This document shows positions 14,169-30,757 of a stretch of 33,888 nucleotides of DNA, in pieces. Each line of letters starts with the position of its first letter. Position 1 is the first letter of the stretch. Made by a program: the position numbers and the translations under genes. Source of the DNA: Fimbriimonadales bacterium (GTDB lineage Bacteria > Armatimonadota > Fimbriimonadia > Fimbriimonadales > JABRVX01); the NCBI GenBank assembly GCA_045862955.1, contig BTVI01000034.1, forward strand, positions 1 to 33,888, written 5' to 3'. The notes below the pieces were generated by a model. It did not search any database. It was not told the origin of the DNA and saw nothing but the letters and a program-made list of their open reading frames with translations.

Positions 14169-14169
14169 G

Positions 14170-14679
14170 CTACGCCTCCCTATACACCCAGACTCGTCCG
14201 CCCTCCACTTTCACTCTTGCTCGCTCGAGCGGCTTGGGGGGTGGACCGGATACCACGTTGCCGGATGCGTCGAACACCCCGCCATGGCACGGGCAAAGGA
14301 AACGACTCTTCTCGGGCTGATACCTGACACGGCAGCCGAGATGTGTGCAGGCCGGGTCCAACGCAATCACCCCGTCCTCATTCCGCCGCAGGTACAGGGT
14401 GTACTTGCGGTCGGCCAGCATGAACCCGTCCTGAACGCGAACGCTGAACGTGACTTCCTTCATCTCGCCCGATGGTAGGTCGGCATCGTTGGCGATGGGA
14501 ATCCACTTCCCGCTACGTCGTTGGCGAAGGGGAGATGCCACGAAGCCTAGAACCGGGCCGAAGACGGCGAGTAGTAGTGCCCCATTGATGAGGCCCACTG
14601 CCCAACCCAGCAGCTTCCGCCGCTCGGGCTGTTCTACCTGTTGGCCTTCTCCGTTCTTGCTAAGGTCGGCTGCGCACAT
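14170..14679 (-). CDS. qcrA: Rieske [2Fe-2S] protein (QcrA/PetC-like) with Tat-type anchor
   Basis: CTHLGC and CPCHGG boxes, GPPPKPL, and N-terminal ERRKLL followed by a TM helix. Confidence 0.93.
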   Translation of the reverse strand: MCAADLSKNGEGQQVEQPERRKLLGWAVGLINGALLLAVFGPVLGFVASPLRQRRSGKWIPIANDADLPSGEMKEVTFSVRVQDGFMLADRKYTLYLRRNEDGVIALDPACTHLGCRVRYQPEKSRFLCPCHGGVFDASGNVVSGPPPKPLERARVKVEGGRVWVYREA

Positions 14680-14697
14680 AGTTCTGTCCTCTCAGTA

Positions 14698-15831: not shown

Positions 15832-16519
15832 GGCCCTCTCTCTCCTCCACGGTGATCGCCCCCTCCAGTCCCAACACGGATGGCATCTGGTCGGACATAG
15901 TGGCTAAGTAACAGCCTGCCGGTTCGGTACCTGCTTCGGGTAGCAGGTGGAATGGCTCCCTCTTGGTCGCATCCTTCTGCTCGGCGATGTAGCGTGATAT
16001 CTCGCTTTCTGGGTCCTCGAGGTCCCCGAAGATTCGCGCTTTCGTCGGGCAGGACACGACGCAAGCCGGTTCCAGGCCGATGTCTACACGGTGCGCGCAA
16101 TAGGTGCACTTGCGTGCCACGTTCTCATTGAGCCTCGGTCTCACGTACCGCGTCTCGTACGGCTCATCGTCCGGAAGGTACCAGCGGTCTTGCGAAGTCA
16201 GGTAGATGTTGCCATACGGACAGGCCGTGACGCATGCGCCTGTTCCGCGGCAGCGGTCTTGATCAATCAGCACGATGCCGTCCGGACGCCGGAAGATCGC
16301 CTTGTTCGGGCAGCTTTTGAGACACGGTGCGTTGTCGCAGTGGTTGCACAACACCGGTACGTACACGCGCTTGACGTTCGGAAACTCCCCCGCCTCGATG
16401 TTCAGCACGCGTGCGAAGAAAACGTCAACCGGAGTGCCGTTCTCCTGCTTGCACGCCATCGTGCACGTATCGCAGCCGATGCAGCGCGTCAGATCAATCA
16501 GCATGGCCATTCGTGCCAT
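15812..16519 (-). CDS. Four-cluster Fe-S beta subunit of the molybdoenzyme (DmsB-sized, with NarH-like [3Fe-4S] site)
   Basis: CIGCDTCTMAC, CNHCDNAPCLKSCP, CRGTGACVTACP and CTYC...CVVSCP..ARIFGD. ATG lies 1 nt after the alpha-subunit stop. Confidence 0.9.
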   Translation of the reverse strand: MARMAMLIDLTRCIGCDTCTMACKQENGTPVDVFFARVLNIEAGEFPNVKRVYVPVLCNHCDNAPCLKSCPNKAIFRRPDGIVLIDQDRCRGTGACVTACPYGNIYLTSQDRWYLPDDEPYETRYVRPRLNENVARKCTYCAHRVDIGLEPACVVSCPTKARIFGDLEDPESEISRYIAEQKDATKREPFHLLPEAGTEPAGCYLATMSDQMPSVLGLEGAITVEEREGHETVSV

Positions 16520-16520
16520 C

Positions 16521-18959
16521 TCAGTCGACCCTCCGAATGTCCACACGAGTGTCCTTCCAGTGTTGTCCCGGAGCGTACACCGCTGGCAGGTAGTAGTTCT
16601 CGTGAGTGGGTTTTACTTTTTGGTGGGTGTGCACACTGTGGTACTTGCCACCGCCGAGATAGCGGTCCCACCAGCCATGATCCACGCACAACACGCCTGG
16701 CTTGATGCCCTCGGTCACCAGCGCCCACAGCCTGTAGGACCCATAGTTGTTGAATATCTCTACCTGGTCGCCGTCACGTATGCCTTTCTTTGCGGCGTCG
16801 CGAGGGTTGATCTCTACCACTGCACCGCGATTCAGGTTCAGCAGAGCGGTATTGTTGCTATGGGTGGAGTGCACGCGCCACTTGGAGTGCGGAGTAACGA
16901 TAGCGAACGGCAAGCGCTGATCCTCCTCGGGCAGGTGCTCGAAGGACGGGCGGTAGATAGGTACCGTCTCACCCAACTTCTGGAAGACGTCCTCCTCCTT
17001 ATAGAACTCCATGCGGCCGGTCTTCAGAAACTCGCGTTGCGCCCCCTCCGGGAACGGATAGGCTCGCGGGGGGAACGGCTTGAACTCGTGGATCTGCTCA
17101 TCTAGGCCACACTCCGGGTCCGGCACCTTCAGCCGAACGGGTCCCTGCCTGAGCTGCTCGAGCGTGATCCCTTCGCACTCCTTGCCACCTTTTTCCAGTA
17201 GGATGCGAATTGCCTCGCTCTCGTCCGGCTCCATCATGGGCAGCAGGCTCGCATCCACCCTGCGTATCAATTCCCGCGCGATCCACAGCTCGGTGCGGCT
17301 CTGGTGCCTAGGAGGTATCACTTCTTGCTGAATCTGAAGATACGGGTGACAGCTAGTGCCTACCAGGTCCATCTTCTCCCAAAACGTAGGAGCAGGCAGC
17401 ACCACATCCGAATACTCGCAGGTAGGTGACATCGAAAAGTCGATGGTGACGAACAGCTCCAGGTTGTCAATCGCGCGCTTCATCGGCTCCGAGAACTCCG
17501 TAACCAGGGGGTTCCCGTGCGAGACGAACAGAGCCTTGAACCCATGTTGCGGAAACTTGATCTTCGGGTTGATCGTTCCCGTCGGTTTTCCTAGCACGAA
17601 GTAGTGCATCGGCACCATGTTCGGCCGCTTCCCCTCGGGAAACCAGTAGCCGCTCACGTCTATCCGGAAGTGATGCTGGCCGGAGTAGATGGACACCGAC
17701 TCTCCCGGCTTGCCGTGTGCGCCGGCCAAGGCGGATAGTAGCAAGATTGCGCGGATGGTCAGGTCCCCATGCAGGCGATGGTTGATGCCCATCCCGATGA
17801 TGATGGAACTCGGTCTTCGAGTAACATACTCACGCGCAACCTCGCGTATCGTGTCGGCAGGTATGTCGGTGATACGTGCTACGTTCTCGGGGGAGTACTC
17901 TTCTCGCATGATCACGTCTTCCAATAGCTGGTAGACCGGAGTCACACGCACCTTCTGGCCTTCCACCTCGACCTCGCGCGTGCCGGCGAGAGAGAGGCGC
18001 ACACCCTCGGGCAGCCGCAGCGTCTCCGATGGCAGCTTGAACAGCGCGTGGGTAGCTTCATCCCAGGCCATGAACTCCATGTCCGATCCCATCCCGACAT
18101 CGGAGGCCCGTAGGCGACGCCCGTTGTCCTCGCGGATGAGTGTCGGGCAATCGGTGAAGGTGCGCAGGAAGTCGCGATCAACGAGATCCTCTTGCATCAC
18201 CACTTGACACATGGAAAGCGCGAGGGCACCGTCCGTGCCGGGGTTGATGGGTAGCCACAGGTCGGCGCCCTTCGCGGTCTGACTGCACCGGGGGTCTATG
18301 CAGACGATCTTGCAGTCGTTGAGCTGTTTCGCGTATTGGGTCAGAAACTTCGCGTCGGGGATGCGGGTCTGAAAAACGTTGCTCGACCAGAGGATCGCGT
18401 ATTTCGCGTGTGCCCAGCTTTTCGTCTCGCACTCCACGCAGTCGATGCCGACCGTGTGCGTGAACCCCATCGAGATGTCGCCGTTGAAATCGTACGCGGT
18501 GGCAAAGGACATACCAAGGAGCGCAGCCATGCGAATCTGCGCGCCCTTCTGGACATAGCTGGTGCCGACGACCTGGTTGAAGAGCAGCATACTCTCCGGG
18601 CCGTAGTTGTCCCGGATGCGGATCATCCGTTCGGCGATGTAGTCGAGCGCCTCGTCCCACGTCGCGGTCTTCCATTTCCCCTCGCCGCGTTCACCGGTTC
18701 GAATGAGCGGAGTGCGGATGCGGTCGGGGCCGTAGATCAGGTGGGTCATCGCCTGACCGCGCAGGCAGCCTCGGGGGTTGTAGTCGGCGCAAGGGTAGTC
18801 GGCCGCGGGCTTCAGGTCGACGATGTCGTCGTTCACCACCGTGGCGAGCCAGCCGCACGCACCCGTACAGTTCGGGCTGTCCGTCGTGCGAACTACTCGC
18901 TCTTCTCCCTGCGGAGCCTCTTGCTTGGCTCTACCAGGTACCCGATACCGCGTTGCCAT
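16521..18959 (-). CDS. Mo-bisPGD oxidoreductase catalytic subunit, DMSO reductase family type II (NarG/NxrA/PcrA-related), no Tat signal; probably a nitrate reductase
   Basis: FS0 motif DSPNCTGAC...NPRGCLRG. Mo-ligand motif YDFNGD (compare NarG YDWYCD). Also YSDVVLPA, TGRMEFY, TPHSKWRVHS and NPRDAAKKGIRDGD. NarK and Moco genes nearby. Confidence 0.9.
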   Translation of the reverse strand: MATRYRVPGRAKQEAPQGEERVVRTTDSPNCTGACGWLATVVNDDIVDLKPAADYPCADYNPRGCLRGQAMTHLIYGPDRIRTPLIRTGERGEGKWKTATWDEALDYIAERMIRIRDNYGPESMLLFNQVVGTSYVQKGAQIRMAALLGMSFATAYDFNGDISMGFTHTVGIDCVECETKSWAHAKYAILWSSNVFQTRIPDAKFLTQYAKQLNDCKIVCIDPRCSQTAKGADLWLPINPGTDGALALSMCQVVMQEDLVDRDFLRTFTDCPTLIREDNGRRLRASDVGMGSDMEFMAWDEATHALFKLPSETLRLPEGVRLSLAGTREVEVEGQKVRVTPVYQLLEDVIMREEYSPENVARITDIPADTIREVAREYVTRRPSSIIIGMGINHRLHGDLTIRAILLLSALAGAHGKPGESVSIYSGQHHFRIDVSGYWFPEGKRPNMVPMHYFVLGKPTGTINPKIKFPQHGFKALFVSHGNPLVTEFSEPMKRAIDNLELFVTIDFSMSPTCEYSDVVLPAPTFWEKMDLVGTSCHPYLQIQQEVIPPRHQSRTELWIARELIRRVDASLLPMMEPDESEAIRILLEKGGKECEGITLEQLRQGPVRLKVPDPECGLDEQIHEFKPFPPRAYPFPEGAQREFLKTGRMEFYKEEDVFQKLGETVPIYRPSFEHLPEEDQRLPFAIVTPHSKWRVHSTHSNNTALLNLNRGAVVEINPRDAAKKGIRDGDQVEIFNNYGSYRLWALVTEGIKPGVLCVDHGWWDRYLGGGKYHSVHTHQKVKPTHENYYLPAVYAPGQHWKDTRVDIRRVD

Positions 18960-19031
18960 TTCCGCACCTCACAGCTTGCGCGCGATGATTGCGCCTACGC
19001 TGCGATTCTCATGCGGCAGGCAACCGGCCCG

Positions 19032-19049
19032 CTATGACCGCCGTCATAG
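19032..19049. promoter_or_regulatory. Crp/Fnr-type operator upstream of the molybdoenzyme operon
   Basis: Perfect palindrome CTATGAC-CGCC-GTCATAG. Confidence 0.8.
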
Positions 19050-19075
19050 GGGGGCAGGACGCTCGAAGAAAGCTG

Positions 19076-19402
19076 CTAACCCTCGCTAGACCGGGCGGCC
19101 AGAACTTCGTCTACCCAGCTGAGGCCGGCCATCATGTTCGGAAAGCCGACGGTGGTTGTGGCCTGAAGAGCGGCGTGTCGTATCTCTTCGGGGGTCGCGC
19201 CGGCTTCCAGGGCCCGACGCGTGTGGCTGCGGACCGCGCTCTCCATCCGCGCACCTACCGAGACGCCAATCTTCACCAGCTCGCGAGTCTTGGCATCCAG
19301 CGGGCCCGCATTCGCGACCGCCTCACCCAGCGCAGTGTATGCTGCTCCCACGTCGGGATAGTTCTTCAGGAACTCCGTGTATCGCTTCGGTAGCTTCTCC
19401 AT
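19076..19402 (-). CDS. Carboxymuconolactone decarboxylase (CMD/AhpD-like) family protein
   Basis: GPLDAKTRELV.IG, AVRSHTRRALEAGATPEEIRHA and TTVGFP. No CxxC. Confidence 0.88.
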   Translation of the reverse strand: MEKLPKRYTEFLKNYPDVGAAYTALGEAVANAGPLDAKTRELVKIGVSVGARMESAVRSHTRRALEAGATPEEIRHAALQATTTVGFPNMMAGLSWVDEVLAARSSEG

Positions 19403-19477
19403 GCCCTTAGGATACTCCCCTCAGGAAGTGGTCACGCAACCTAGGAGGATGGCACCGACCCGCCGAACGCTAGTCGC

Positions 19478-20065
19478 GTGGACATCGAAGCTGCGTTGCT
19501 TACCGGTGGAGCGAGCCGGCGCATGGGGCGCGACAAAGCGACGCTCGACGTGCGAGGCCGCCCGCTGGCCGAGGTCATTGCGTCCCGTATCCTGGCCGTC
19601 GGCATCCCCGTCACGGTGCTTGGGCCAAAGCCGCTTCCAGGTTGCACTCTGCAGCAGGACATTTCGCCACACGAGGGGCCGCTCGTTGCGCTGAGCCGAT
19701 TCCAGCCTCGCGCGGACTTCCTCTTCGTCTGTTCGTGCGATCTACCGCTCTTCGATGCTCGAATCATCGAGGTCCTATCGGACCTTGTTGGGAACCGGGA
19801 CGCCGCCATCCCGCTGAGCCAGGGCCGACCACAACCTCTCTGCGCCCTTTACCTAGCCCGAGCGCTCGCAGGGCTATCCGAGTGGGTGAGGCAGGGGAGC
19901 CGACGCGTGATGGAGTGGATCGAAGCACTGGACTACATCGGGGTTTCGGAGGAGCATCTGGAATCGCGAGGACTGTCGCGCCACTGCGTGCGCCATGCAA
20001 ATACTCCGCAAGAGCTAGAGCTTCTACTTAGCTTAGGAGTAGCTCGTCCAGAACCTGAGGCTTGA
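19478..20065 (+). CDS. mobA: Molybdenum cofactor guanylyltransferase
   Basis: LLTGGASRRMGRDKA, GPLVAL, CSCDLP, QPLCALY and ANTPQEL. Confidence 0.9.
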   Translation: MDIEAALLTGGASRRMGRDKATLDVRGRPLAEVIASRILAVGIPVTVLGPKPLPGCTLQQDISPHEGPLVALSRFQPRADFLFVCSCDLPLFDARIIEVLSDLVGNRDAAIPLSQGRPQPLCALYLARALAGLSEWVRQGSRRVMEWIEALDYIGVSEEHLESRGLSRHCVRHANTPQELELLLSLGVARPEPEA

Positions 20066-20765
20066 GGATCGTAATGACCTGGTGGTCGGTGCAGGCTACG
20101 CCCTCCTTCTGCCATCGACTCATCACTCGAATGGCGGTCTCGACCGTGGTTCCCGCCATCTCGGCTAGGTCGGCCCGGGTGAGTGGGACGGTCAGTCGCG
20201 TGCCCTCGGGGACCTTCTCGCCGTAAGACAGCATCAGGATGAGCAGCACCGCAGCGATTCGGTGCTCGACCTTGCCGGTAGACATGCGGGCCATCATGTC
20301 GTGTGCTTTGCGCAGCCGCGGGGCCAGCGAGCGGAGCACCTGGTCGCGCAGGCCGGTGCTCTCGCGGTACACCTCTAGCAGCGCGGGCACCGGGATCTTC
20401 AGGTACCAAACGTCGGTCACCGCGACCGCGCTGAGCGGATAGACCCTGCCTTCGATGGCACTAAGAATCCCTGCGGCTTGTCCGGGTCCGAGCAGCTCCA
20501 CAGCCACCTCGCTACCCTGCGGCGTGGTCCGCGTCATCTTGATGAAGCCCGTTCCGACCACTGCCGCGAAGTGTGATGGTCCGCCCGCTACCCAGATGAA
20601 CTCGCCCCGACCCGCATAGGCGACGTAGGAAGCATCGGCTAGTGTGCGCCGTTCTTCGGGCCTGAGCGCGTTGAACAGCGAGCAAGCTTCGATCACCGCT
20701 ACGTTGCTCGGGCGGTCGGGCAGCTGCTCGGTGTCGTGTCTTCCGGACTGTTGGCTCGCACCCAT
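20028..20765 (-). CDS. Crp/Fnr family transcriptional regulator (DNR/NnrR-like, no FNR Cys cluster)
   Basis: cNMP-type domain (V.TGFIKM....QGSEVAVELLGPG, YPLSAVA) and HTH LTRADLAEMAGTTVETAIRVMS. Start set at ATG 20765; the longer ORF overlaps narK. Confidence 0.9.
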   Translation of the reverse strand: MGASQQSGRHDTEQLPDRPSNVAVIEACSLFNALRPEERRTLADASYVAYAGRGEFIWVAGGPSHFAAVVGTGFIKMTRTTPQGSEVAVELLGPGQAAGILSAIEGRVYPLSAVAVTDVWYLKIPVPALLEVYRESTGLRDQVLRSLAPRLRKAHDMMARMSTGKVEHRIAAVLLILMLSYGEKVPEGTRLTVPLTRADLAEMAGTTVETAIRVMSRWQKEGVACTDHQVITILKPQVLDELLLS

Positions 20766-20833
20766 CTGTCTTGCCCCCAAGGCGAGTTGGGGCCACCCCT
20801 TGCGCCTCTCTTCATCGTGGGCTACGCGTCGTC

Positions 20834-22159
20834 TCACTCGGCTGCCGCGGGAGCGGGGCTCGGCTGAGCATCCGCCGCGTGGATCCCCACACTCGCCTCC
20901 GCACGCTTCAACGACCTCACGACGGCATGTAGCCATATCAGGCTCACTCCAGTAACCGCAAAGATTACCCAGAACATGGACTGCGGTGAGCCGCTCCAAC
21001 GCGCAAGGTAAGCAAATAGCGGTGGCATGATGAACCCGCCGAGGGCCGCGAGCGCCCCGACCAACCCGACCACGGCACCGACGTCAAGCGGATAGTACTC
21101 CGGGATGTACTTTATCGTGGACGCCTTGCCAATCCCTTGGGCGATGCCGATCACCAGCACCATCGCTGCGAACGGATAGAGTCCGAGGGGGAGGAACAGC
21201 ACCGCCGATGCTAGCAGGCACGACGTGAACACCACATAGGTCACCCTGCGAGGCCCGAAGCGGTCGGAGAGGTAGCCGCCGAACGGCCGCAGTAGGCTGG
21301 ACGCCAGAATGAACGGCGTGGTGAGCAGCGCTGCGGTCGAAAGGGGCAGCCCATACACGTCCACGTAGTACTTGGGCAGCCACACCGACATCGCGACATA
21401 CGCGCCGAACACGACCGTGTAATAGAGGCTAAAACGCCAGACTCGCATCTCGCGCAACGGTCGCAGCATGTCGCCGAGTGGCCGATTCGCCGAGGGACGT
21501 CTATCCGGGCGAGGCGCCAGCCACCACATGAGCGTAGCCATGATGGCGATGAGGACGCTGTAGAGGAACGGGATAAATCGCCACCCACCCGGAATCAGTC
21601 CGCCCAGTAGCGGCACCGGGACGAGCGCCATCAGGCCCGGACCAATGAACTTAGTGATAGAGGCTCCCACGTTGCCCGCGCCGAACAGACCCATCGCAAA
21701 TCCCTGCTTTTCTTTCGGGAACCATGCGGCACACCACGCAGAGCCGACGGCGAAGCTGTTCCCCGCGATACCCACGAGGAAGGCCCCAAGAAGCAGCTCC
21801 GGGTATGTATTGGCCTTGCCGACCACGAACGAGGCAATCCCCGCGAACAGGAACGTGCCGAGGAACACGACCTTGCCCCCGAGCCGGTCGGAGAGGACGC
21901 CGAGCGCGAGCCGCCACACCGCGCCATTGAGGATAGCCACCGCAGTTAGCCACGCCAGTTGCTCGTCGGATAGCCCCAGCTCCTTTCGGATGGGCACGCC
22001 CAACACGCCGAACATCGTCCAGGCACCGAAGAGCAGGGTGAAACCCGAGAAGGAAAGCCACAACACACGGTTCCGCCGGCGGACGACTTCGGGTGAGTCC
22101 GGCGCGGACGGCCGGCTGGCGAGGGTCAGCTGATCACGGGATAGATTCGACTCAGGCAT
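20834..22159 (-). CDS. narK: Nitrate/nitrite MFS transporter, NarK1-type
   Basis: WTMFGVLGVPIRKELGLS, nitrate signature GIAGNSFAVG..W...WFPKEKQGFAMG.FGAGN, and RPFGGYLSDRFG. Confidence 0.88.
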   Translation of the reverse strand: MPESNLSRDQLTLASRPSAPDSPEVVRRRNRVLWLSFSGFTLLFGAWTMFGVLGVPIRKELGLSDEQLAWLTAVAILNGAVWRLALGVLSDRLGGKVVFLGTFLFAGIASFVVGKANTYPELLLGAFLVGIAGNSFAVGSAWCAAWFPKEKQGFAMGLFGAGNVGASITKFIGPGLMALVPVPLLGGLIPGGWRFIPFLYSVLIAIMATLMWWLAPRPDRRPSANRPLGDMLRPLREMRVWRFSLYYTVVFGAYVAMSVWLPKYYVDVYGLPLSTAALLTTPFILASSLLRPFGGYLSDRFGPRRVTYVVFTSCLLASAVLFLPLGLYPFAAMVLVIGIAQGIGKASTIKYIPEYYPLDVGAVVGLVGALAALGGFIMPPLFAYLARWSGSPQSMFWVIFAVTGVSLIWLHAVVRSLKRAEASVGIHAADAQPSPAPAAAE

Positions 22160-22193
22160 GAACCCATTCTCCGCCCGAATTGGGGACCAGACC

Positions 22194-22209
22194 TATGACG
22201 GCGGTCATA
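22194..22209. promoter_or_regulatory. Crp/Fnr-type operator upstream of the NarK1-type gene
   Basis: TATGAC-GGCG-GTCATA. The 18-mer 22193-22210 matches the reverse complement of the 19032 site at 17 of 18 positions. Confidence 0.8.
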
Positions 22210-22225
22210 TCGGCCCCACAGTCTG

Positions 22226-23569
22226 CTAGCAGGGCTTTTCGGCCCCTCGTCTGGTGTAGAACCAGTAGTTCAGGAGCAGGTTCGCTGCGTAGAAGGCCGC
22301 AGCTCCGAGGAAGAACGCCTGCGCGGAACCGGTTCGCGCGATGATCCAGCCGAACAGGACCGAGAAAGCGAACGGCCCGTAAGCCGCCACCGCGGATGTC
22401 CAACCGATGACGCCGCCGGCTTGCCGAGGCGGAAAGATCATCGGCATCTGCTTGAACGTGGACGCGTTGCCCACCCCGCTAAAGAAAAACAGCCCCAGCA
22501 TCAGCCAGAGGAACTTCGGCCAGTTCTCCAGGGAAGTAGGGGCAGTATAAGGACTGACCGCCAACGCACACACGAGCAGCCCGACGGCGCTGAACATGGT
22601 GACCCTCGCACCACCCAATCGGTCGCTCACGGGCCCGAAGAGGGCGCGCACCAGAGCCCCGACCAAGGGACCGAGGAATGCATACTTCAGAGGATCGGGA
22701 CCTCCCGGAAAGCCACCGTAGAGCTTCTTGATAAGCAGCGGGAAGGACGCCGCGTACCCGCTGAACGACCCGAAGGTCATGATGTAGAGCGACGTCATGA
22801 TCCACGTGTGCTTATCGCGAAAGATATCGAGTTGCTCGCGGAAGGACGCCCTGACCGGAACCCGTCGCAGTCCGAACCACGCCGCGATGGAGCACACCAC
22901 GATGAACGGAATCCATACGAAGGCCGCGTTCTGAAGCCAGATCTGTGACTCTTGGCCTTTGGCGGAGAAAGTCTGCGAAGACCCGACGAGACCGACGCCG
23001 ATGACCGCAGGGATGACGAACTGTGCGAGGCTAACGCCGAAATTGCCGATACCTGCCTGAATGCCGAGCGCCGTGCCCTGAAGTCGCTTGGGGAAGAACA
23101 ACGAGGTGCTGGGCATGAACGAGCTGAAGTTGCCGCCCCCCAGCCCCGCGAGGATACCGAGCAGCATGAAAGTGCCGTAGCTGGTGTCGGGGTTCATCAC
23201 CGCGAGCCCCCAGCCTATCGCGGGAATCAACAGCAGGAGCGTGGACACCGTGATGGTGTTGCGGGTCCCGAAGATGGGGATCAGGAACGTGTGCACGATC
23301 CGCAGCGTTCCGCCCGCAAGCCCGGGCATCGCGTTCAGCCAGAAGAGCTGCTGCGTGTCGAACCGATAACCGATCCCGGTCAGTTTCACCACGATGGCGC
23401 TGACCATGAACCACGTGGAGAACGAGAAGATCAGGGAGGCGGTGGTGATCCAAAGCGTGCGCCAGGCAAGACGGCTGCCGCCGGACTCCCAGCAAGCGGC
23501 ATCTTCCGGGTTCCAGGGGGTTGTACCTGTGGCGGTCCGAGGCTCTGCGACTATGGATTGTTGCGACAT
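22226..23569 (-). CDS. narK: Nitrate/nitrite MFS transporter, NarK2-type
   Basis: WNPEDAACWE..G..LAWRTLWI, GGGNFSSFMPSTSLFFPKRLQGTALG, YIMTFGSFSG and GVGNASTF. ATG 23569 with RBS AAGGAG. Confidence 0.92.
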   Translation of the reverse strand: MSQQSIVAEPRTATGTTPWNPEDAACWESGGSRLAWRTLWITTASLIFSFSTWFMVSAIVVKLTGIGYRFDTQQLFWLNAMPGLAGGTLRIVHTFLIPIFGTRNTITVSTLLLLIPAIGWGLAVMNPDTSYGTFMLLGILAGLGGGNFSSFMPSTSLFFPKRLQGTALGIQAGIGNFGVSLAQFVIPAVIGVGLVGSSQTFSAKGQESQIWLQNAAFVWIPFIVVCSIAAWFGLRRVPVRASFREQLDIFRDKHTWIMTSLYIMTFGSFSGYAASFPLLIKKLYGGFPGGPDPLKYAFLGPLVGALVRALFGPVSDRLGGARVTMFSAVGLLVCALAVSPYTAPTSLENWPKFLWLMLGLFFFSGVGNASTFKQMPMIFPPRQAGGVIGWTSAVAAYGPFAFSVLFGWIIARTGSAQAFFLGAAAFYAANLLLNYWFYTRRGAEKPC

Positions 23570-23617
23570 GGCGACTCCTTCGTGGCACCAGCATCGGCGA
23601 TGGGTGGGGATGATGGG

Positions 23618-23633
23618 TATGATACTCGTCATA
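23618..23633. promoter_or_regulatory. Crp/Fnr-type operator (narK2 side of the divergent promoter)
   Basis: TATGAT-ACTC-GTCATA. Confidence 0.72.
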
Positions 23634-23672
23634 TCGGGGGAGGAATTGTCCCCGCCGCGCCGTCTGGCGGGC

Positions 23673-23688
23673 TATGATCGGGGTCATG
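23673..23688. promoter_or_regulatory. Crp/Fnr-type operator (moaA side of the divergent promoter)
   Basis: TATGAT-CGGG-GTCATG. Confidence 0.68.
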
Positions 23689-23722
23689 TCTGGCGGTTAT
23701 GCGATTGAAGGAGAATCAGTTC

Positions 23723-24754
23723 ATGCCTGGCGGCGACGAACTAGCATCTAGCGGGAGAAACATCGCTGAGCGGTCACCACTGACCGACCGCTTTGGGCGA
23801 GTGCACTCCTATCTGCGCATCTCCGTCACGGACCGGTGCAACTTCCGCTGCGTCTACTGCATGCCGCCTGAAGGTATCGAGTGGCGTTGTCGCGAGGAAC
23901 TCCTGACGTTCGAAGAGATCGTCCGCCTGGCTCGTGTCTTTGTCCGCCTGGGCGTGGACAAGGTACGCCTCACCGGCGGCGAGCCGACGGTGAGGCGCGG
24001 CATCGAGAGCCTGCTCTCGGCCTTAGCAGGGTTGCCTGGCCTGCATACGCTAGCGATGACCACCAACGGATTCCGTTTGCGGGAACAGGCTCGGATCTAT
24101 CGTGAGGCGGGGCTGACGAACATCAACGTCAGCCTCGATTCACTGCGACGTGACCGGTTTGAGCAGATTACGCGGCGTGACGCGCTGGATGACGTTCTCG
24201 CCGGCCTGGATGCTGCGCTGTCTGTGGGTTTCCGGAAGGTAAAAATCAACACCGTGGTTATGGCTGGCGTGAACGACGACGAATTGCTCGACTTCGTAGA
24301 TCTGGCGCGTGACCGGCCACTCCACGTACGCTTCATCGAGTTCATGCCCTTCCATAACAACGGGTGGTCGGTGGGCGGTGTGTTCCCGCTGGCCCGCATG
24401 CGCGAGGTGATCGGGGGCAGATACTCTCTGGAGCCAGTGCGCGCCGAGCCGAACGCAGTCGCTCGTGAGTGGCGAATCCCAGGTTTCGAGGGCACCATCG
24501 GCTTCATCGCTTCGATGACGGAAAGCTTCTGCTCGGAATGCAATCGGATACGCTTGACCGCGGACGGGCAGATCAAGTCATGCCTCTTCTCGCCAGCGGA
24601 GAGCAACCTGAGAGACGTGCTGCGGACAGGCGCAAGCGACGATGAACTGGAGGCGCGCATTCGAACGGCACTGTGGCTGAAGCCCAAAGAGCACCCGCCG
24701 ATGGAAGTGCTTGCCGCGCAGGAGAACCGCAGCATGATCGAGATCGGGGGCTGA
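23723..24754 (+). CDS. moaA: GTP 3',8-cyclase
   Basis: YLRISVTDRCNFRCVYCMP, RLTGGEP, RFIEFMP, FCSECNRIR...C and C-terminal IGG. RBS AAGGAG before ATG 23723. Confidence 0.97.
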   Translation: MPGGDELASSGRNIAERSPLTDRFGRVHSYLRISVTDRCNFRCVYCMPPEGIEWRCREELLTFEEIVRLARVFVRLGVDKVRLTGGEPTVRRGIESLLSALAGLPGLHTLAMTTNGFRLREQARIYREAGLTNINVSLDSLRRDRFEQITRRDALDDVLAGLDAALSVGFRKVKINTVVMAGVNDDELLDFVDLARDRPLHVRFIEFMPFHNNGWSVGGVFPLARMREVIGGRYSLEPVRAEPNAVAREWRIPGFEGTIGFIASMTESFCSECNRIRLTADGQIKSCLFSPAESNLRDVLRTGASDDELEARIRTALWLKPKEHPPMEVLAAQENRSMIEIGG

Positions 24755-24758
24755 CGCT

Positions 24759-25982
24759 TTGATCACCTATGAGGAGGCGCTACGCCTACTGGCGGAACAC
24801 ATTCGTCCCCTCGGCACCGAGACGGTGGCCCTAGATCGGCTGTTGGGGCACGTGCTGGCACAAGACGTAACGGCTAAGTGTGACATGCCGCGCTTCGACA
24901 ACTCCGCGGTAGACGGCTACGCGCTGAGTGCGGAGGACTTCGCGACGATGCAGCGAGGAGAGGTGACTCTGGATCTCGCCGGCACAGTGCGCGCGGGAGA
25001 AGCCACTTGCTCGCTTCGCCCAGGTGAGACGGTGCAGGTGTTCACCGGCGCCCCAATCCCCGAAGGCACCGCGGCAGTCGTGATGCAGGAAGACGCCCAG
25101 CAGAGCGAAGGACGCATCCGGCTGACCGGGCACGTACGCGAGGGGCAGCACGTACGGCGACGGGGCGAGGAGTTTCGAGAAGGAGACGTGGTGGTGCCTT
25201 CGGGTCGCCGTGCGACGCCAGCGGTAGTGGGTGCCGTCGCGTCGGCTGGCCGGCACTCAGTGATGGTGAATCGCCGACCCCGCGTCGGAGTGCTGGTCAC
25301 TGGCAACGAACTGGTGCTACCAGGTGAGACGCTGAGGGACGGGGCAATCTACGATTCCAACACGCCGCTCCTTCTCTCGCTGTTACGCTCGGTGGGCATC
25401 CAGGATGCGTTGCCCATGCGCTGCGGAGACGATCGGAACGCCACGCGAGCAGCTCTCGAGAAGCTGCTGGCAGAGTGCGACGCGGTCATCACGTCCGGCG
25501 GTGTATCCGTGGGTGCCTACGACGTGGTGCGATTGGCACTGGCCGCACTAGGTGTGCAAGAAGTGTTCTGGCGTGTCGCCATCAAGCCCGGAAAGCCGGT
25601 GTACTTCGGTGTGGCAACGAGTGATAGTCCGAAGTATGTCTTCGGTCTGCCTGGGAACCCCCTGTCTGTTGCTGCTACCTTTCTAACGCTAGTAGTCCCG
25701 GCGCTGGGAGCCCTCGAAAGTGGTGTCGTTCGCAACCCCTTCACGCTACACGCGCGGCTTGCAGTACCTGTGCAGAAGAAGGCTGGGCGTCTGGAGTTCG
25801 TGCCATGCATGCTCCGTGGCGATCGGTTACTGACCGCGCAACCGATTGCCGAGCGCGGCTCTCACATGCTGGGTGGTTTTGCACGTGCGAATGCGTTGTT
25901 CCTGTTTCCACTCGACTGCGACACGCTGCAGGAGGCCGATGAGGTGGTAGTCTCGATGCTGCCATGGGGGGTGATCGAGTGA
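24759..25982 (+). CDS. moeA: Molybdopterin molybdotransferase
   Basis: PRFDNSAVDGYA, TGAPIPEG..AVVMQE, TGNEL, SGGVSVG and KPGKP...GLPGNP. Confidence 0.96.
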   Translation: MITYEEALRLLAEHIRPLGTETVALDRLLGHVLAQDVTAKCDMPRFDNSAVDGYALSAEDFATMQRGEVTLDLAGTVRAGEATCSLRPGETVQVFTGAPIPEGTAAVVMQEDAQQSEGRIRLTGHVREGQHVRRRGEEFREGDVVVPSGRRATPAVVGAVASAGRHSVMVNRRPRVGVLVTGNELVLPGETLRDGAIYDSNTPLLLSLLRSVGIQDALPMRCGDDRNATRAALEKLLAECDAVITSGGVSVGAYDVVRLALAALGVQEVFWRVAIKPGKPVYFGVATSDSPKYVFGLPGNPLSVAATFLTLVVPALGALESGVVRNPFTLHARLAVPVQKKAGRLEFVPCMLRGDRLLTAQPIAERGSHMLGGFARANALFLFPLDCDTLQEADEVVVSMLPWGVIE

Positions 25983-26224
25983 CCAAGCGCGTACGCGTGC
26001 GCTACTTCGCGCTGCTGCGGGAGGAGCGCGGTAGAGACGTGGACGAACTGGATACCAGTGCGCACACTGCTAGACAGCTGTACGAAGCGCTGCAGGCGAA
26101 GTTCGGTTTCAGCCTGCCGATGCGCCTGGTCGGAGTCGCAGTGAACGGCAGTCTGGTTACGATGGAGAGGGCGATCAGAGACGGTGACGAGGTGGTGTTC
26201 CTGCCACCGGTGGCGGGTGGATAG
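25979..26224 (+). CDS. moaD: Molybdopterin synthase sulfur carrier
   Basis: VRVRYFALLRE, VAVNG and DGDEVVFLPPVAGG (C-terminal GG). GTGA overlap with moeA. Confidence 0.93.
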   Translation: MTKRVRVRYFALLREERGRDVDELDTSAHTARQLYEALQAKFGFSLPMRLVGVAVNGSLVTMERAIRDGDEVVFLPPVAGG

Positions 26225-26225
26225 C

Positions 26226-27896
26226 ATGTTTCGTATCACTAGCGACGTCATCGCAGAGGATGCGCCGCGGGACCCGGCAGCCGGCGCCTACGTCGTGTTC
26301 GAAGGACGCGTACGAGACACGAACGAAGGTCGCCGCGTGCTCGCCGTCGAGTATGAGGCGCACGAGGAGCTCGCTGTCACCGAGGGCGAGTCGGTGCTTT
26401 CGGAGGCCCGCGAGCGCTACGGACTGCAAGACGCGAGGTGCGTGCACCGCGTTGGCCGGTTGAACGTGGGAGATACCGCCGTGTGGGTGTGTGCGGTGTC
26501 GGGCCATCGCTCGCAGGCATTCGCCGCTTGTCGCTACATCATAGACGAAGTGAAGCGCCGAGTGCCTATCTGGAAAAAAGAACACTACGCAGAGGGCGGG
26601 TCAGAATGGCTCCGCGGAGCGCCGTTAGGCGCCGGGGCCGTGAGCGAAGAAGCATACTACTCCCGGCAGACGCTTCTCCCCCAGCTTGCAGGTGGAGGGC
26701 AACAGCGGCTGCGGGATGCGCGCGTGCTAGTTGTTGGTGCCGGTGGATTGGGGTGCGCTGCCTTGCCCTACCTGGTAGCTGCCGGCGTGGGACAGGTGTC
26801 GGTATGCGATTCCGACCCCGTGGACGTGAGCAACCTGCACCGACAGGTGCTCTTCTCGGCAAACGACATCGGACGGCGGAAGGCGGAAGTGGCAGCCGAG
26901 AGACTGCGTTCGCTCAACCCCTTCGTTTCGGTCGCCGCGTACCCGTACAGACTTGCTGCGGAGAACGTCGAGGCGCTTGTTAGTGATCATGACGTCGTGC
27001 TGGACTGCACCGACAACTTCGAGACCAAGTTCCTCCTGAACGACGCATGCGTCGCACTCGGCACGCCGCTGGTCCAGGCCAGCATCTACCAGATGGAAGG
27101 GCAGATTCAGCTCATTGCCCCTGGTAGCGGCTGTCTGCGTTGTCAGTGGCCCGAGACGCCTCCCTCGGGCTGTGTGGGATCATGTGCTGAGGTAGGCGTC
27201 CTGGGGGTGCTCCCAGGACTCTTCGGAGTGCTGCAAGCTACCGAGACGATCAAGCTGATTACCGGCATCGGCGAGTGCCTGACGCGTACTCTGCTACTAG
27301 TGGACCTGCGGACATATCAGGTGACACGATTGGAGCGTCCACCTAATCCATCCTGCCCAGCGTGTGGCCCTCGCTCCAGCGCAGCACGATACCCTGCATC
27401 ACGAGCCGCCGAATCCTCGCGAGGTGCAGTGGGCATCTCCTTGGCCACTCCCTCCCCTTGGAGCGAAGCGGAAGGGGGAGGGCTGGGGAGGGGGTCGGAC
27501 TCCCCGGAACCCACACCACACACGCCCCAACACACCTCACTACTCACACCACCCTCCCATTCCTCACCGTCCGCAGTGGTGAGAGACGAGCGGGCTGAAG
27601 AGCCGTCGCCTACTTGGATGGTTCGCGCGGACTGCCCCGAACTCGGCTCGATGGTCGTGATTGACCTGCGAGAGCTCGATGAAGAACGGGAGCCGGTCCC
27701 GCTCGTGGACGCACATGCTCTGCACATCCCCATGAGCCGCTTTTCGCGCGAACTTCCTGGGCTCGATCCTGCGAAGCACTACGTGCTTGTGTGTGCTCAC
27801 GGCAACCGCGCCTCGCGCCTGGCCCGCCACCTCCACTCCCAGGGCCTCACCAACTTCTTGGCTTTGGACCCGAGGGCATATTCGCGAAGCGGCTGA
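26226..27896 (+). CDS. MoaE-MoeB-rhodanese fusion (molybdopterin synthase catalytic subunit + adenylyltransferase + sulfurtransferase)
   Basis: MoaE: GAYVVFEGRVR, HRVGRL, HRSQAF, KRRVPIWKKE. MoeB: YSRQ, VGAGGLG, SNLHRQ, DCTDNF, CLRC, CPAC. Rhodanese: IDLRE..E, CAHGNRA. Confidence 0.9.
   Translation: MFRITSDVIAEDAPRDPAAGAYVVFEGRVRDTNEGRRVLAVEYEAHEELAVTEGESVLSEARERYGLQDARCVHRVGRLNVGDTAVWVCAVSGHRSQAFAACRYIIDEVKRRVPIWKKEHYAEGGSEWLRGAPLGAGAVSEEAYYSRQTLLPQLAGGGQQRLRDARVLVVGAGGLGCAALPYLVAAGVGQVSVCDSDPVDVSNLHRQVLFSANDIGRRKAEVAAERLRSLNPFVSVAAYPYRLAAENVEALVSDHDVVLDCTDNFETKFLLNDACVALGTPLVQASIYQMEGQIQLIAPGSGCLRCQWPETPPSGCVGSCAEVGVLGVLPGLFGVLQATETIKLITGIGECLTRTLLLVDLRTYQVTRLERPPNPSCPACGPRSSAARYPASRAAESSRGAVGISLATPSPWSEAEGGGLGRGSDSPEPTPHTPQHTSLLTPPSHSSPSAVVRDERAEEPSPTWMVRADCPELGSMVVIDLRELDEEREPVPLVDAHALHIPMSRFSRELPGLDPAKHYVLVCAHGNRASRLARHLHSQGLTNFLALDPRAYSRSG
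27448..27496. repeat. REP-like palindromic element inserted in frame in the MoeB-rhodanese linker
   Basis: CCCTCCCCTT-(loop GGAGCGAAGCGG)-AAGGGGGAGGG followed by CTGGGGAGGGGG. Translates as PSPWSEAEGGGLGRG. Confidence 0.6.
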
Positions 27897-27972
27897 TTGT
27901 GGTATGGTGGGCTTGAGAGGTCATGACTGCAACTGCCCCGAAGTTGGCAATTGCGTTCCCAGGAGCTCTGGC

Positions 27973-28473
27973 TTGTCCAGCAGACGGCACCTAAGGAGCG
28001 AGACAGACTCGATTGGGCAGGAGGCGGTTGCAGCAGTCACCGCGTGGCATGAGCGCCAGTGTCCACCGTGGGAGGTGACGGACGTACAGCGGCACGCGGC
28101 GTACAAGAAGATCGACGTGGATCTGCCCGTCAAGGCTCAAGGCAATGAGTATTCGATCGAGGTGAAGGGTGATCGGTGGGATAGCACGGGCAACCTGTTT
28201 CACGAGACCGTCAGCAATGCTGAGCTCAGGGCCCCAGGTTGTTTCTCATAAACGAAGGCCGACTTCGTCTATTACTACTTCTTTCGGACCCGTCATCTGT
28301 ATATACTACCTATGCCCGAAACGCGCGTCTGGTTCAGGCGGCACGAAGAGGAGTTCGAAGAGCGACGAACCCAGACTAGCCTCGGATCGTCAGCCTTCAG
28401 CACCATCGGCAGGCTGGTGCCGATCTGGCGTGTCATGGCCGAGGCCCACGGAGTCAGAAGGGAGGCTCTCTAG
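27973..28473 (+). pseudogene. PD-(D/E)xK nuclease-like gene interrupted by an in-frame TAA at 28249-28251
   Basis: TTG start after AGGAG. Sequence reads IDVDL...IEVKGD...TGNLFHET.SN...PGCFS*. The same frame continues TKADFVYYYF...LYILPM...GRLVPI to TAG 28471-28473, 3 nt before the next ATG. Confidence 0.7.
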
Positions 28474-28476
28474 TCT

Positions 28477-29832
28477 ATGAGGAGCCCAAGAGACCTCATC
28501 ATTCACATCGCCTCGCAGCTGGCCTCCAAGCGCCCAGAAGATCCTCAAGGTATCGCCGATGTAGAAGCGGCGCGAGTGGTACTCGCTAGCGTCAACCGGT
28601 ACTTCTACCAGACGAGCTCCGGTCTCGGCGCGACTGACGTCTTGGATGGAGAGCGGATCCAGTACTTCTCGGAATTTCACAGGTGGTGGGAGGCGAATCA
28701 TGCCGCTGTTCTCGCTATTCGGATCGATCGCGCGCAGGCGGCCGCAGCAGCGGACGCGTTGCACAAGGCCGTTGTGGAACACGGTGCCGAGATACTGGGC
28801 CTCACCCATCAACCACACGGATTGCCCCCGGAGGCTGTAGCTCAAGTCAGGTTCTTCACGGCGAACCAGGACTGGCGGGAGTCACCATCGGATCCCTACG
28901 GCAAGTACGTCGAGGACCCGAACTGGTTCTTGGCGGAGTCGATCAGGGAGGATCCGGTAGGATTCGTATCTCATCTCGGGCTCACCCGTCTGTCGCAAAC
29001 AGACAAGCGCGTCGACTATGCGAGGAACGCCGCGGAGTATCTCCTAGCCAACCGCGTCACTGCCTACAACCTACCTAGCCTGTTCGGTGATGATGCAGTG
29101 GAACTCCGCAACGGGCTCGCCGAAGCCAGGGGAACGGGCTATGGCATGAAGAAGGCCAATATGCTCGTGCGCGACCTCGTGGAGATGGATGTCTGGCCGC
29201 ATCTGCGCAACTTCGAAGGCATCGACGTTGCGAGCGATGTCAACACGGTGAAAGTCGCGCTGAGAACTCGCGTCCTTCAGCCGGGGATTCAGCTGCTATC
29301 GAGCTTTCTGGATATCTTCTGCTACCAGTATGGTCACGTGGACAGAATGAGCGCTCAGGCATGGCGGGCCGTCTGGGAAGCCTGGCAAGACTCCCACCCC
29401 GAGACCTGCCCGCGATCTCCGTGCAAGTTGGACTTCTTGCTCTACAGGATCGGCCAGGAATATTGTAGGGACATGCTTTGCCGCTACGAATGCGAGGCGG
29501 GATGCACCTTCTGCCACTTCGGCGGAGCCCTCAAGCACTGCCGTTCATGCGCACGAGGTGGTCGGCGTAGCAGAGTGCAAGTGACGGCTCGCTTACTCCC
29601 CTGCCAAGTGGATCCTTCCGAGCTTCCGAGGGAGTCGGGCATTCTGCTCCTTCAAGAAGGCAACCTCCTGCGGCGGTTCAATGGGGTATGCCCGTTCGAG
29701 CCCATCTGTGAGCCAAAGGCCCACGGCTTTGTCGCGCTCGACCCGCCCAAATCAATCTCGATCAAGGGACAGACGGGCTGGACGAGTTCCTATGCAGACG
29801 TCGAACGTGGCGGCGGCGGTATGATGGGTTAA
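28477..29832 (+). CDS. Uncharacterised HhH-GPD/EndoIII-fold protein with Cys-rich C-terminus
   Basis: HhH-like GTGYGMKKANMLVRDL, downstream DVASDVNTVKVALR, LDFLLYRIGQEYC, CxxC pairs and CPFEPIC. Confidence 0.62.
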   Translation: MRSPRDLIIHIASQLASKRPEDPQGIADVEAARVVLASVNRYFYQTSSGLGATDVLDGERIQYFSEFHRWWEANHAAVLAIRIDRAQAAAAADALHKAVVEHGAEILGLTHQPHGLPPEAVAQVRFFTANQDWRESPSDPYGKYVEDPNWFLAESIREDPVGFVSHLGLTRLSQTDKRVDYARNAAEYLLANRVTAYNLPSLFGDDAVELRNGLAEARGTGYGMKKANMLVRDLVEMDVWPHLRNFEGIDVASDVNTVKVALRTRVLQPGIQLLSSFLDIFCYQYGHVDRMSAQAWRAVWEAWQDSHPETCPRSPCKLDFLLYRIGQEYCRDMLCRYECEAGCTFCHFGGALKHCRSCARGGRRSRVQVTARLLPCQVDPSELPRESGILLLQEGNLLRRFNGVCPFEPICEPKAHGFVALDPPKSISIKGQTGWTSSYADVERGGGGMMG

Positions 29833-29842
29833 TCGAAAGCGA

Positions 29843-30748
29843 GTGGAAGACACGGTGAACCTAGGCGACCCCTCGACCCATGTGCCATGCTCCCCTGGGC
29901 AGATCGATCCGGCGGGACCGTCGGCTCCTGCTCGTGCACCGACGACGGTCCAACTTCCATCACCCGGCACCACGCCCTACTGGGAAGCCAAGACAGTCCG
30001 GCTGTTTCTCGGGGACAGCCTCAGTCTGCTGAGTGGCTTCCCGCCAGAGACATTCGATCTTATCTTCGCAGATCCTCCGTACTTCCTTTCTTCTGGTGGC
30101 ACTACTTGCCACGCCGGTCGTATGGTCAGCGTTGACAAGGGCGCATGGGACAAACCGCCCCCGCCGGAGCAGATTCACGAGTTTAACGTTGAGTGGCTGA
30201 GGCTGTGCAAGCGCGTGCTCAAGCCGGACGGCACCATCTGGGTGTCAGGCACCCTTCACAATATCTACAGCGTCGGGTATGCGATGCAGACTTTGGGACT
30301 AAGGATCCTCAATGACATCGCGTGGTTCAAGGTCAATCCGCCACCCAACCTCGGATGCCGCTGCTTCGCCCATGCAACGGAGACGATTCTGTGGGCTTCC
30401 AAGGGCAAGAGGGCGAAACACACGTTCAACTATGAAGAGATGAAGAGAGCCAACGGCAATAGGCAGATGCAGTCGCTGTGGCACATTCCCCCACCCGGTC
30501 CCGGGGAGAAGCGATACGGCAAGCATCCCACGCAGAAGCCTGAGGCGCTACTTAGCCGCATAATCGCTGCATCAAGCTTGCCCGGGGGCTTCGTGTTGGA
30601 CCCGTTCTGCGGAAGTGGAACTACCGGCGTCGCCTGTGTAAGACTTGGGAGAGTGTTTGTGGGGATCGAACTCGAGCGAGACTACATTGACGTCGCCAAA
30701 CAGCGCATCAGTGACGAAGTGGCGCAGTGCGTATTGTCCTTCGACTAG
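29843..30748 (+). CDS. Beta-class N6-adenine/N4-cytosine DNA methyltransferase, DpnA (M2.DpnII)-like
   Basis: DLIFADPPYFLSSGG...VSVDKGAWD, KHPTQKPE and VLDPFCGSGTTG, with motif IV before motif I. Confidence 0.9.
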   Translation: MEDTVNLGDPSTHVPCSPGQIDPAGPSAPARAPTTVQLPSPGTTPYWEAKTVRLFLGDSLSLLSGFPPETFDLIFADPPYFLSSGGTTCHAGRMVSVDKGAWDKPPPPEQIHEFNVEWLRLCKRVLKPDGTIWVSGTLHNIYSVGYAMQTLGLRILNDIAWFKVNPPPNLGCRCFAHATETILWASKGKRAKHTFNYEEMKRANGNRQMQSLWHIPPPGPGEKRYGKHPTQKPEALLSRIIAASSLPGGFVLDPFCGSGTTGVACVRLGRVFVGIELERDYIDVAKQRISDEVAQCVLSFD

Positions 30749-30757
30749 TATCGCGCC

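Follow-up and report, generated by a model that had tools for sequence, protein, structure and literature searches.

A helix-hairpin-helix protein of predicted Qng1-like fold, encoded beside amino-methyltransferases in mobile cassettes, is a candidate restriction glycosylase

The subject of this analysis is a 451-aa protein, P0001, encoded in a 33,888-nucleotide stretch of DNA from a Fimbriimonadales bacterium (contig BTVI01000034.1; here, the window), directly upstream of the gene for an amino-methyltransferase, P0002. The reading that we favor, at somewhat short of even confidence, is that P0001 is a methylation-blocked restriction glycosylase/lyase that acts on guanine in a GATC context and is the restriction partner of the adjoining methylase. 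It draws on the predicted fold, on conserved residues, on gene neighborhoods, on mobility, and on a pattern of shared gene damage. Guanine would be the base, from a predicted pocket that matches those of Qng1, OGG2, and Dag1; GATC would be the site, from the partner genes; an abasic-site (AP) lyase activity would come from the helix-hairpin-helix (HhH) motif's lysine, and a block by methylation is presumed. Coordinates are collected in Table 1.

P0001 had no match in Pfam (E value of 0.1), PADLOC, or PHROGs, and one weak, unrelated match in NCBIfam; the comparison with PADLOC, which the initial annotation of the sequence had called for, thus gave no match to a known defense family. Searches of Protein Data Bank (PDB) chain sequences with P0001 and with its alignment, A1, gave chance matches only. 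Homologs numbered 437 among 7996 scored candidates, with 106 matches among 50%-identity representatives. An AlphaFold2 model from a 116-row alignment had a predicted local distance difference test score (pLDDT) of 88.3 and a predicted template modeling score of 0.88. Foldseek ranked the queuine salvage enzyme Qng1 first with this model (E value of ∼1e-4), followed by MutY, Mig, OGG, and EndoIII, and VIA-align gave Z scores of 19.1 and 18.3 for Qng1 (261 to 263 residues aligned; root mean square deviation [rmsd] of 3.3 to 3.7), 11.6 for AGOG, and 11.2 for EndoIII; the top 21 matches (Z of 6.7 to 19.1) were all HhH glycosylases or Qng1. ESM Atlas points to the same branch of the fold, and BFVD gave no match under an E value of 0.001. 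We conclude that P0001 is, as modeled, a member of the HhH glycosylase superfamily, with a predicted two-lobed helical fold and an HhH motif, and lies on the Qng1/AGOG branch rather than that of EndoIII. The HhH fold proposed by the initial annotation is therefore upheld, but EndoIII, to which it had likened the protein, is not the closest relative.

P0001 stands apart from each of the neighboring families. It is not an EndoIII/Nth protein, having no Pfam match, cysteines split by a predicted zinc ribbon in place of a compact C-x6-C-x2-C-x5-C, and D-x3-Y where Nth has H-x-ALI; it does not belong to the Qng1 family PF10343, to which one distant member scored 14 bits against a cutoff of 25; and its model core is helical HhH throughout, unlike the HALFPIPE fold of R.PabI. 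None of 151 genomes from the window's own phylum yielded PF10343, and AGOG gave one weak match in 5 genomes, too few for a profile. No relatives of P0001 were found in IMG/VR (61 pattern matches, none confirmed), PLSDB, or INPHARED, and no fused forms were found among proteins of 864 to 2465 aa, a weak test.

Conservation was assessed in 161 rows, P0001 plus the matches from 160 loci, and in a distant set of 29 representatives of at least 320 aa. K225, K226, M229, and D254 were invariant (161 of 161 rows), and K225, D233, W240, and D254 were found in 29 of 29 distant representatives, with D319 in 28. D319 was present in 159 of the 161 rows, the other 2 having gaps, and position 323 was Y or F in 159. 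K225 aligns with the HhH catalytic lysine, and D254, in the motif VASD, lies 29 residues after it, bearing out the Lys/Asp dyad that had been noticed at the outset. Profiles were built for Qng1 (25 loci), OGG2 (17 loci), and Nth (7 loci) and compared by hhalign, which placed K225 on the HhH lysine of all three, D254 likewise on the catalytic Asp, and D319-x3-Y323 on the D-x3-W of Qng1 and OGG2; D-x3-W was present in 24/24 Qng1 and 14/14 OGG2 rows printed and in 0/6 Nth rows. The motif KKANMFIRDM of P0001 agrees directly with KRAQICVADL of Qng1. K225, M229, D233, and D254 pair with K199, I203, D207, and D231 of Qng1, and D319 and Y323 with D298 and W302; for the guanine-face pocket (I203, D207, D298, and W302 in Qng1), spacing and hhalign register agree, with a Z of 18 to 19 and an hhalign probability of 0.2%. 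Qng1 D298 and W302 are assigned guanine-face reading and stacking roles, and D298 is described as discriminating against adenine (PMC9881137). Sequence and model together indicate that P0001 likely has a guanine-type pocket (M229, D233, D319, and Y323) of the Qng1/OGG2/Dag type, and the excised base is likely G or 7-deazaguanine, not A.

Two sets of cysteines, Cys330/376/405/411 and C339/C(H)343/C355/C358, were conserved in 153 to 158 of the 161 rows. Distant members that do not have the insert, such as P0140, carry a compact EndoIII-like four-Cys motif, so the predicted zinc ribbon is an insertion and the four outer cysteines are the predicted Fe-S ligands; the EndoIII-like Fe-S motif split by a Cys-rich insert, as first annotated, finds support in this pattern. 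P0158 gave Zn_ribbon Pfam matches below the cutoff. The C-terminal tail (window 29700-29832), PPKSISIKGxTGW...GGGG-x-x-(G/A/S), is highly conserved up to the last residue; in Qng1, the C terminus is reported to complete the active site (PMC9881137). A distant subfamily, consisting of L140 (G420:C125), P0179, P0180, P0186, and P0203, keeps the K, the D, a D-x3-F, and the GGGG tail but has altered QxDKR and KSISI motifs; the neighbors of L140 include an HPPY methylase and a PDDEXK_11 nuclease.

Gene neighborhoods were surveyed in two sets of loci, the best 80 of 103 from genomes and the best 80 of 268 from metagenomes, which overlap and contain near-duplicates; partners were named by comparing 47 and 25 selected proteins with Pfam and PADLOC and then counted with purpose-built profiles. 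A methylase lay within 3.6 kb in 120 of the 160 loci (110 intact, 10 at a contig edge); 10 more had a broken methylase, one of them a weak false match, in 9 the flanks, of 1.2 kb or more, contained none, and in 21 the flanks were too short to tell. The partners fall into three types that are not related to one another: Dam (PF02086), DpnA-like, and a permuted PF01555 type that carries an HPPY motif. Each of the three is also present in Dam-DpnII cassettes. The expected linkage of homologs to Dam/DpnA-type methylases was thereby confirmed. Nuclease genes comprised DpnII (30 loci), MutH-like (21), HARE-HTH-like (18; Pfam matches below cutoff), and PLD-DpnI_C fusions (3). The suggested connection with GATC, originally a guess from DpnA likeness, is now backed by Dam, DpnII, MutH-like, DpnI, and DpnI-type winged-helix neighbors.

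At 61 loci, the methylase was intact and the sequence extended 1.5 kb to either side; 32 of these were without any profiled nuclease. Reading the neighbors removed L048 (DpnI), L192 (PDDEXK_11), and L051 (nuclease-like by eye), leaving ∼29 of 61 as clean methylase-glycosylase pairs, a count that other nuclease types, such as the one upstream of P0001, could have escaped. Many of these pairs are wedged between housekeeping genes, in several phyla and in archaea. In a quick tree (81 rows), partner types were scattered, the methylase-only label requiring 23 changes and DpnII 12. GATC avoidance in the window's own genome was 0.82, 4th of 16 palindromes; in the genes flanking the cassettes it was 0.58 for methylase-only and 0.46 for nuclease loci, figures that come without a cassette-free control and do not discriminate.

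The cassette is mobile and strain variable. Some 2.9 kb in size, it consists of a nuclease-like open reading frame (ORF), P0001, and P0002. In a genome of the same genus, G386, the flanking genes are adjacent and the cassette is absent as a block; homology runs up to 27880 and picks up again at 30755, the two parts being separated by 235 unrelated bases. Contigs of a higher-depth strain (run X6) diverge at 27880 and 30757. A P0001-type gene was present in 2 of 61 related genomes, the window's own counted, and the second match belongs to the distant subfamily. As in type II restriction-modification, the candidate effector gene travels with its presumed cognate methylase, in 120 of 160 loci and in the block absent from G386. 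A promoter and terminator scan found nothing.

The P0002 gene has a GTG start and follows that of P0001 on the same strand after a 10-nt gap. P0002 matched PF01555 (N6_N4_Mtase; E value of 4e-57) and PADLOC MTase_II (PDLC03371; E value of 4e-89) and scored 408 bits with a DpnA-like profile built from neighbors, which groups it with the second methylase found in Dam-DpnII cassettes; it is the DpnA-like DPPY beta-class enzyme that the initial annotation had recognized. Its GATC specificity is probable by sequence likeness. P0002 has matches of 47% identity in G434 and G435, a level that the CcrM-like gene also reaches. Separate from the cassette, Dam-like (C31) and CcrM-like (C18) genes occur in the window's own genome; DpnII had no match there.

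Upstream of P0001 lies the broken nuclease-like frame, which had been called a dead nuclease and is indeed split by a TAA codon. The codon is covered, with no listed difference, by contigs from three further studies (runs X6, X8, and X11), so the stop is not an assembly slip. Two intact homologs of the product (180 to 188 aa) share 40 to 42% identity with it. Family matches were weak (NOV_C, E value of 0.018; phrog_13596 for the homologs), a single-sequence model of the homolog P0227 had a pLDDT of 39 and was unusable for fold, and the putative nuclease label follows from the motif.

Table 1. Positions in the window of the P0001 cassette and its predicted features
Feature	Coordinates	Strand	Basis or remarks
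P0001, HhH-superfamily glycosylase-fold protein (predicted), 451 aa, Qng1/AGOG branch	28477..29832	+	AlphaFold2, Foldseek, VIA-align
HhH motif and predicted catalytic pair	29137..29238	+	GYGMKKAN at 29137-29160; K225 29149, K226 29152, M229 29161, D233 29173, D254 29236
D319-x3-Y323, predicted guanine-face reading and stacking pair	29431..29445	+	Conservation, Qng1/OGG2 motif match
Predicted split 4Fe-4S motif (C330, C376, C405, C411) with inserted zinc ribbon (C339, C343, C355, C358)	29464..29709	+	Conservation; metal binding predicted
P0002, DpnA-like beta-class amino-methyltransferase, 301 aa	29843..30748	+	DPPY ... DPFCGSG, DPPY first; beta order
Broken PD-(D/E)xK-like nuclease gene (IDVD...IEVKGD)	27904..28473	+	Split by TAA at 28249-28251; true start uncertain
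Strain-variable three-gene cassette between moaE/moeB fusion and convergent meaB-like gene	27881..30756		GC 0.59

Patterns of gene damage suggest that the glycosylase gene depends on the methylase. At the 18 informative loci with no intact methylase, the glycosylase gene was truncated or split in 12 and full length in 6; at loci with an intact methylase it was damaged in 3 of 105 that could be scored. One of these 3, L012, is identical to the intact L168 except for the break, and another, L048, has DpnI in the cassette, an incomplete Dam, and a glycosylase gene that has lost its C terminus. In L048 (9080-9880, minus strand), DpnI lies between the incomplete Dam and an intact HPPY methylase, an arrangement hinting that the HPPY type does not make Gm6ATC in double-stranded DNA there. 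All 18 methylase-less loci carry a HARE-HTH-like or PLD-winged-helix (PLD-wH) nuclease instead. Winged-helix PLD fusions are reported to be N6-methyladenine (m6A)-dependent enzymes, toxic in Dam+ cells (PMC11037411), so these loci look like cassette swaps in the style of DpnI and DpnII. In the window, the nuclease is dead, and the glycosylase and methylase are intact. Loss was reciprocal in the genus of L065: in L065, DpnII is split and the glycosylase gene is intact, and G442 has an intact DpnII and a short glycosylase-like remnant. A third genome of that genus, G444, holds a Dam-DpnII-HPPY cassette without the glycosylase gene, which was found in 1 of 8 genomes of the genus; for this reason, the published transformation data for Clostridium thermocellum, as given in PMC6791906 and PMC3536630, are no test of the family.

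At L016/L185, L023, L024, L026, L208, and L209, glycosylase residues 1 to ∼75 are replaced by a small Cys-rich ORF (GYCVEC...C..CW) just 5' of the glycosylase match. This ORF follows a HARE-HTH-like or PLD-wH nuclease in every case, is in frame with the rest of the gene in L026 and L208 but not elsewhere, and could represent either a separate variant or the decaying product of a swap. An Anaerolineaceae locus described in PMC11037411, with a methylase (predicted site, CGATCG), a PLD-wH protein, and two hypothetical proteins, resembles L023 and L024.

In the mechanism that we propose, P0001 would flip guanine out of unmethylated GATC-context DNA, D254 would drive glycosidic cleavage to excise it, and the lyase chemistry of K225 would probably nick the abasic site; amino-methylation of the site by the host would block P0001. 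With a G on both strands of GATC, the staggered lesions could be enough to break both strands. Should 7-deazaguanines also fit the Qng1-like pocket, phage DNA in which a modified G blocks nucleases would still be attacked, which could explain why DpnII and MutH-like nucleases are often kept alongside. It is difficult to account in any other way for the two-gene cassettes and for the exchange of one methylase for another among three; methylation-blocked restriction seems to us the most likely role.

Several findings weigh against this interpretation. We know of no HhH enzyme that excises normal G efficiently. The hhalign probabilities were low (Qng1, 0.2%; OGG2, 9%; Nth, 47%), so residue equivalence rests on motif spacing and structural Z scores. 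DpnII or MutH-like genes, mostly full length, are present in 51 of 160 loci and look redundant if the glycosylase restricts GATC. GATC depletion inside the glycosylase gene was weaker in methylase-only (0.79) than in nuclease loci (0.50). Five of the 6 full-length copies at the 18 methylase-less loci form one Anaerolineales subclade (L020, L025, L187, L188, and L194, which share S65P) with a ratio of nonsynonymous to synonymous substitutions (dN/dS) of 0.04 to 0.12; no HPPY-type methylase was found in G433-G436, which are draft genomes, and the best D12 methylase of G434 is part of an EcoRV-type pair. The 5'-truncated L023, L024, and L209 also have low dN/dS (0.04 to 0.08), so "damaged" may not mean dead, and the 12 of 18 are not independent, since one insertion often hits both genes and several loci are near-duplicates.

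The alternative that survives best, unlikely in our view but a serious contender, is that P0001 is a modification-dependent defense glycosylase like the Dag enzymes, excising 7-deazaguanine derivatives (preQ0 and archaeosine) from phage DNA and harmless to normal host DNA. It would ride with GATC systems because such phages modify G in GA and escape GATC enzymes, and methylase-only loci would be remnants that have lost the nuclease. The nearest structure, Qng1, is a 7-deazaguanine nucleotide hydrolase, whose D207 is matched by D233. The Dag enzymes, as described in 10.1101/2025.10.29.685425, share with P0001 membership of the HhH superfamily, a Lys with D-x3-W (D-x3-Y in P0001), and mobility, and their bifunctionality and guanine-type targets match those predicted for P0001; Dag1 needs K118, D184, and W188 and cleaves G-modified DNA only. 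Phage CAjan is reported to carry modified G in GA and GGC and so to resist EcoRV and HaeIII, its m6A being ten-fold lower (PMC7544227), and DNA of phage 9g to resist BamHI (GGATCC) (PMC5567051); DpnII may be blocked by 7-deazaguanine by analogy with BamHI and EcoRV. The glycosylase co-occurs with both DpnII-type and DpnI/winged-helix nucleases, and its methylase-free subclade is intact and under purifying selection. Behind GATC nucleases, an enzyme with a guanine pocket would make a natural second line, in keeping with the presence of DpnII or a MutH-like gene at 51 loci. However, no well-flanked locus has the gene alone, the 18 of 18 methylase-less informative loci carrying a HARE-HTH-like or PLD-wH nuclease, and the ∼29 clean pairs among 61 well-flanked loci have intact methylases. 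Dag genes, compared here by description, are found as integron cassettes and are modification dependent, and the word "methyltransferase" is absent from the main text of the preprint. A pocket that took both G and 7-deazaguanine would reconcile the two readings. In its fullest form, which we consider rather unlikely, P0001 would represent a second, independently evolved family of restriction glycosylases, of HhH/Qng1 fold; it would remove guanine where GATC is unmethylated, any one of three unrelated amino-methylases would serve as its guard, and 7-deazaguanines would be accepted too, closing the escape of preQ0/archaeosine phages from GATC nucleases.

A role in host repair, as a partner like Mig or Vsr that removes a damaged or mispaired purine (8-oxoguanine, hypoxanthine, or mismatched G) arising at methylated GATC, is improbable. 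The D-x3-W pocket is common to the repair enzymes OGG2 and AGOG, and Mig.MthI (PDB 1kea), which matches the P0001 model with a Z of 9.4, is a precedent for an HhH enzyme beside a methylase. OGG2/AGOG, EndoIII, MutY, and Mig.MthI share the HhH fold (Z of 9 to 12) and EndoIII-type Fe-S cysteines with the family, and its TANQ matches TANS of OGG2 and SQNT of Nth. Unlike them, the P0001 family has no sequence-level match, is ∼450 aa long, patchy, mobile, and tied to amino-methylases. All partner methylases found are amino-methylases (PF01555 or PF02086), and amino-methylation does not bring the deamination of 5-methylcytosine to T.

Still less probable is PabI-like chemistry on a different fold, with the unmethylated adenine of GATC excised and N6-methylation blocking directly. 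Dam and DpnA do mark the A, and MutY-type HhH enzymes, which excise A, were among the structural matches (Z of 9 to 10). R.PabI excises unmethylated A from GTAC (PMC7229829), and with R.CcoLI (PMC10273834, PMC4357717, and PMC7229829) it offers the logic proposed for P0001 in the favored reading, a base excised from a 4-bp site unless an amino-methylase has marked it, together with an AP-lyase step and gene mobility with the methylase; it differs in its HALFPIPE fold and in removing A. D319, in contrast, is found in every ungapped row, and its Qng1 counterpart, D298, discriminates against adenine according to PMC9881137. A DNA-modifying transglycosylase, swapping or decorating the base at GATC through a covalent Asp intermediate and leaving the DNA undestroyed, is very improbable: Qng1 may use a covalent D231 intermediate with retention (PMC9881137), and phage amino acid:DNA transferases show a weak likeness in fold (8z2m, Z of 6.0; BFVD E values of 0.5 to 2), but no base-biosynthesis genes recur among the neighbors scanned and IMG/VR, INPHARED, and PLSDB yielded no relative.

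Among known systems, the best structural match is thus Qng1/QNG1 (DUF2419, PF10343; queuosine-5'-phosphate N-glycosylase; PDB 7u07 and 7ugk; Z of 18 to 19, ∼260 residues aligned, rmsd of 3.3 to 3.7), with the same spacing of K, D, and D-x3-aromatic residues and a long K-to-D loop with a conserved Trp. Qng1 is described as acting on the free nucleotide in tRNA salvage (PMC9881137); the P0001 family is 14 to 15% identical to it and differs in its restriction-modification neighbors, in a further domain at the N terminus, and in a predicted zinc ribbon and Fe-S cluster. DpnII-type cassettes (Dam/DpnM, DpnA, and DpnII) contain the same methylases, and 30 of 160 loci are such cassettes with a P0001-type gene added, whereas about half of the well-flanked P0001 loci have no nuclease; the glycosylase gene is optional, as in G444. 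END nucleases (PMC12191111) use an EndoIII/Ogg-like domain in antiphage defense against modified bases, but that domain is described as an inactive sensor fused to a nuclease, whereas the catalytic pair of P0001 is invariant and no fused form was found in our weak test. Brig3 is reported to target 5-hydroxymethylcytosine.

No description of the family was found in the literature searched, in which subscription journals were not covered. The restriction glycosylases treated in a published review are all HALFPIPE-fold members of the PabI family that remove adenine. If the favored reading is true, base-excision restriction would have arisen a second time in P0001, which might also serve as a sequence-specific tool for making abasic sites, and many methylases counted as orphans would have an unrecognized partner, missed by PADLOC, Pfam, and PHROGs. 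If P0001 is instead Dag-like, a widespread anti-7-deazaguanine layer would exist inside GATC cassettes across bacteria and archaea.

Further observations concern the cassettes and the window. Long HPPY-type methylases of ∼540 aa (L001:4143-5765, L012:4260-5834, L053:2049-3674, and similar ones) have an N-terminal zinc finger/helix-turn-helix-like part and a second, degenerate methylase-like domain at the C terminus. Stand-alone MutH-like genes (205 to 234 aa) fill the DpnII slot of related cassettes, outside the usual context of MutH (L005/L165/L200, L015/L181, L042, L043, L047, L050, L069, and L191). A family of 179 to 212 aa with no Pfam or PADLOC match recurs as a cassette neighbor (L011:1524-2063, L034:8521-9159, and L041:4303-4842). 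A GmrSD gene, encoding a modification-dependent nuclease, lies between glycosylase and DpnA genes in L042 (7310-8971), and L222 has a similar gap. Elsewhere in the window, positions 26184-27896 encode a MoaE-ThiF-rhodanese fusion whose low-complexity Pro/Ser linker is longer than that in G386, and positions 13035-26000, with a molybdopterin oxidoreductase, cytochrome b and c genes, two major facilitator superfamily transporters, and molybdenum cofactor genes, form an ordinary nitrate reductase-like region.

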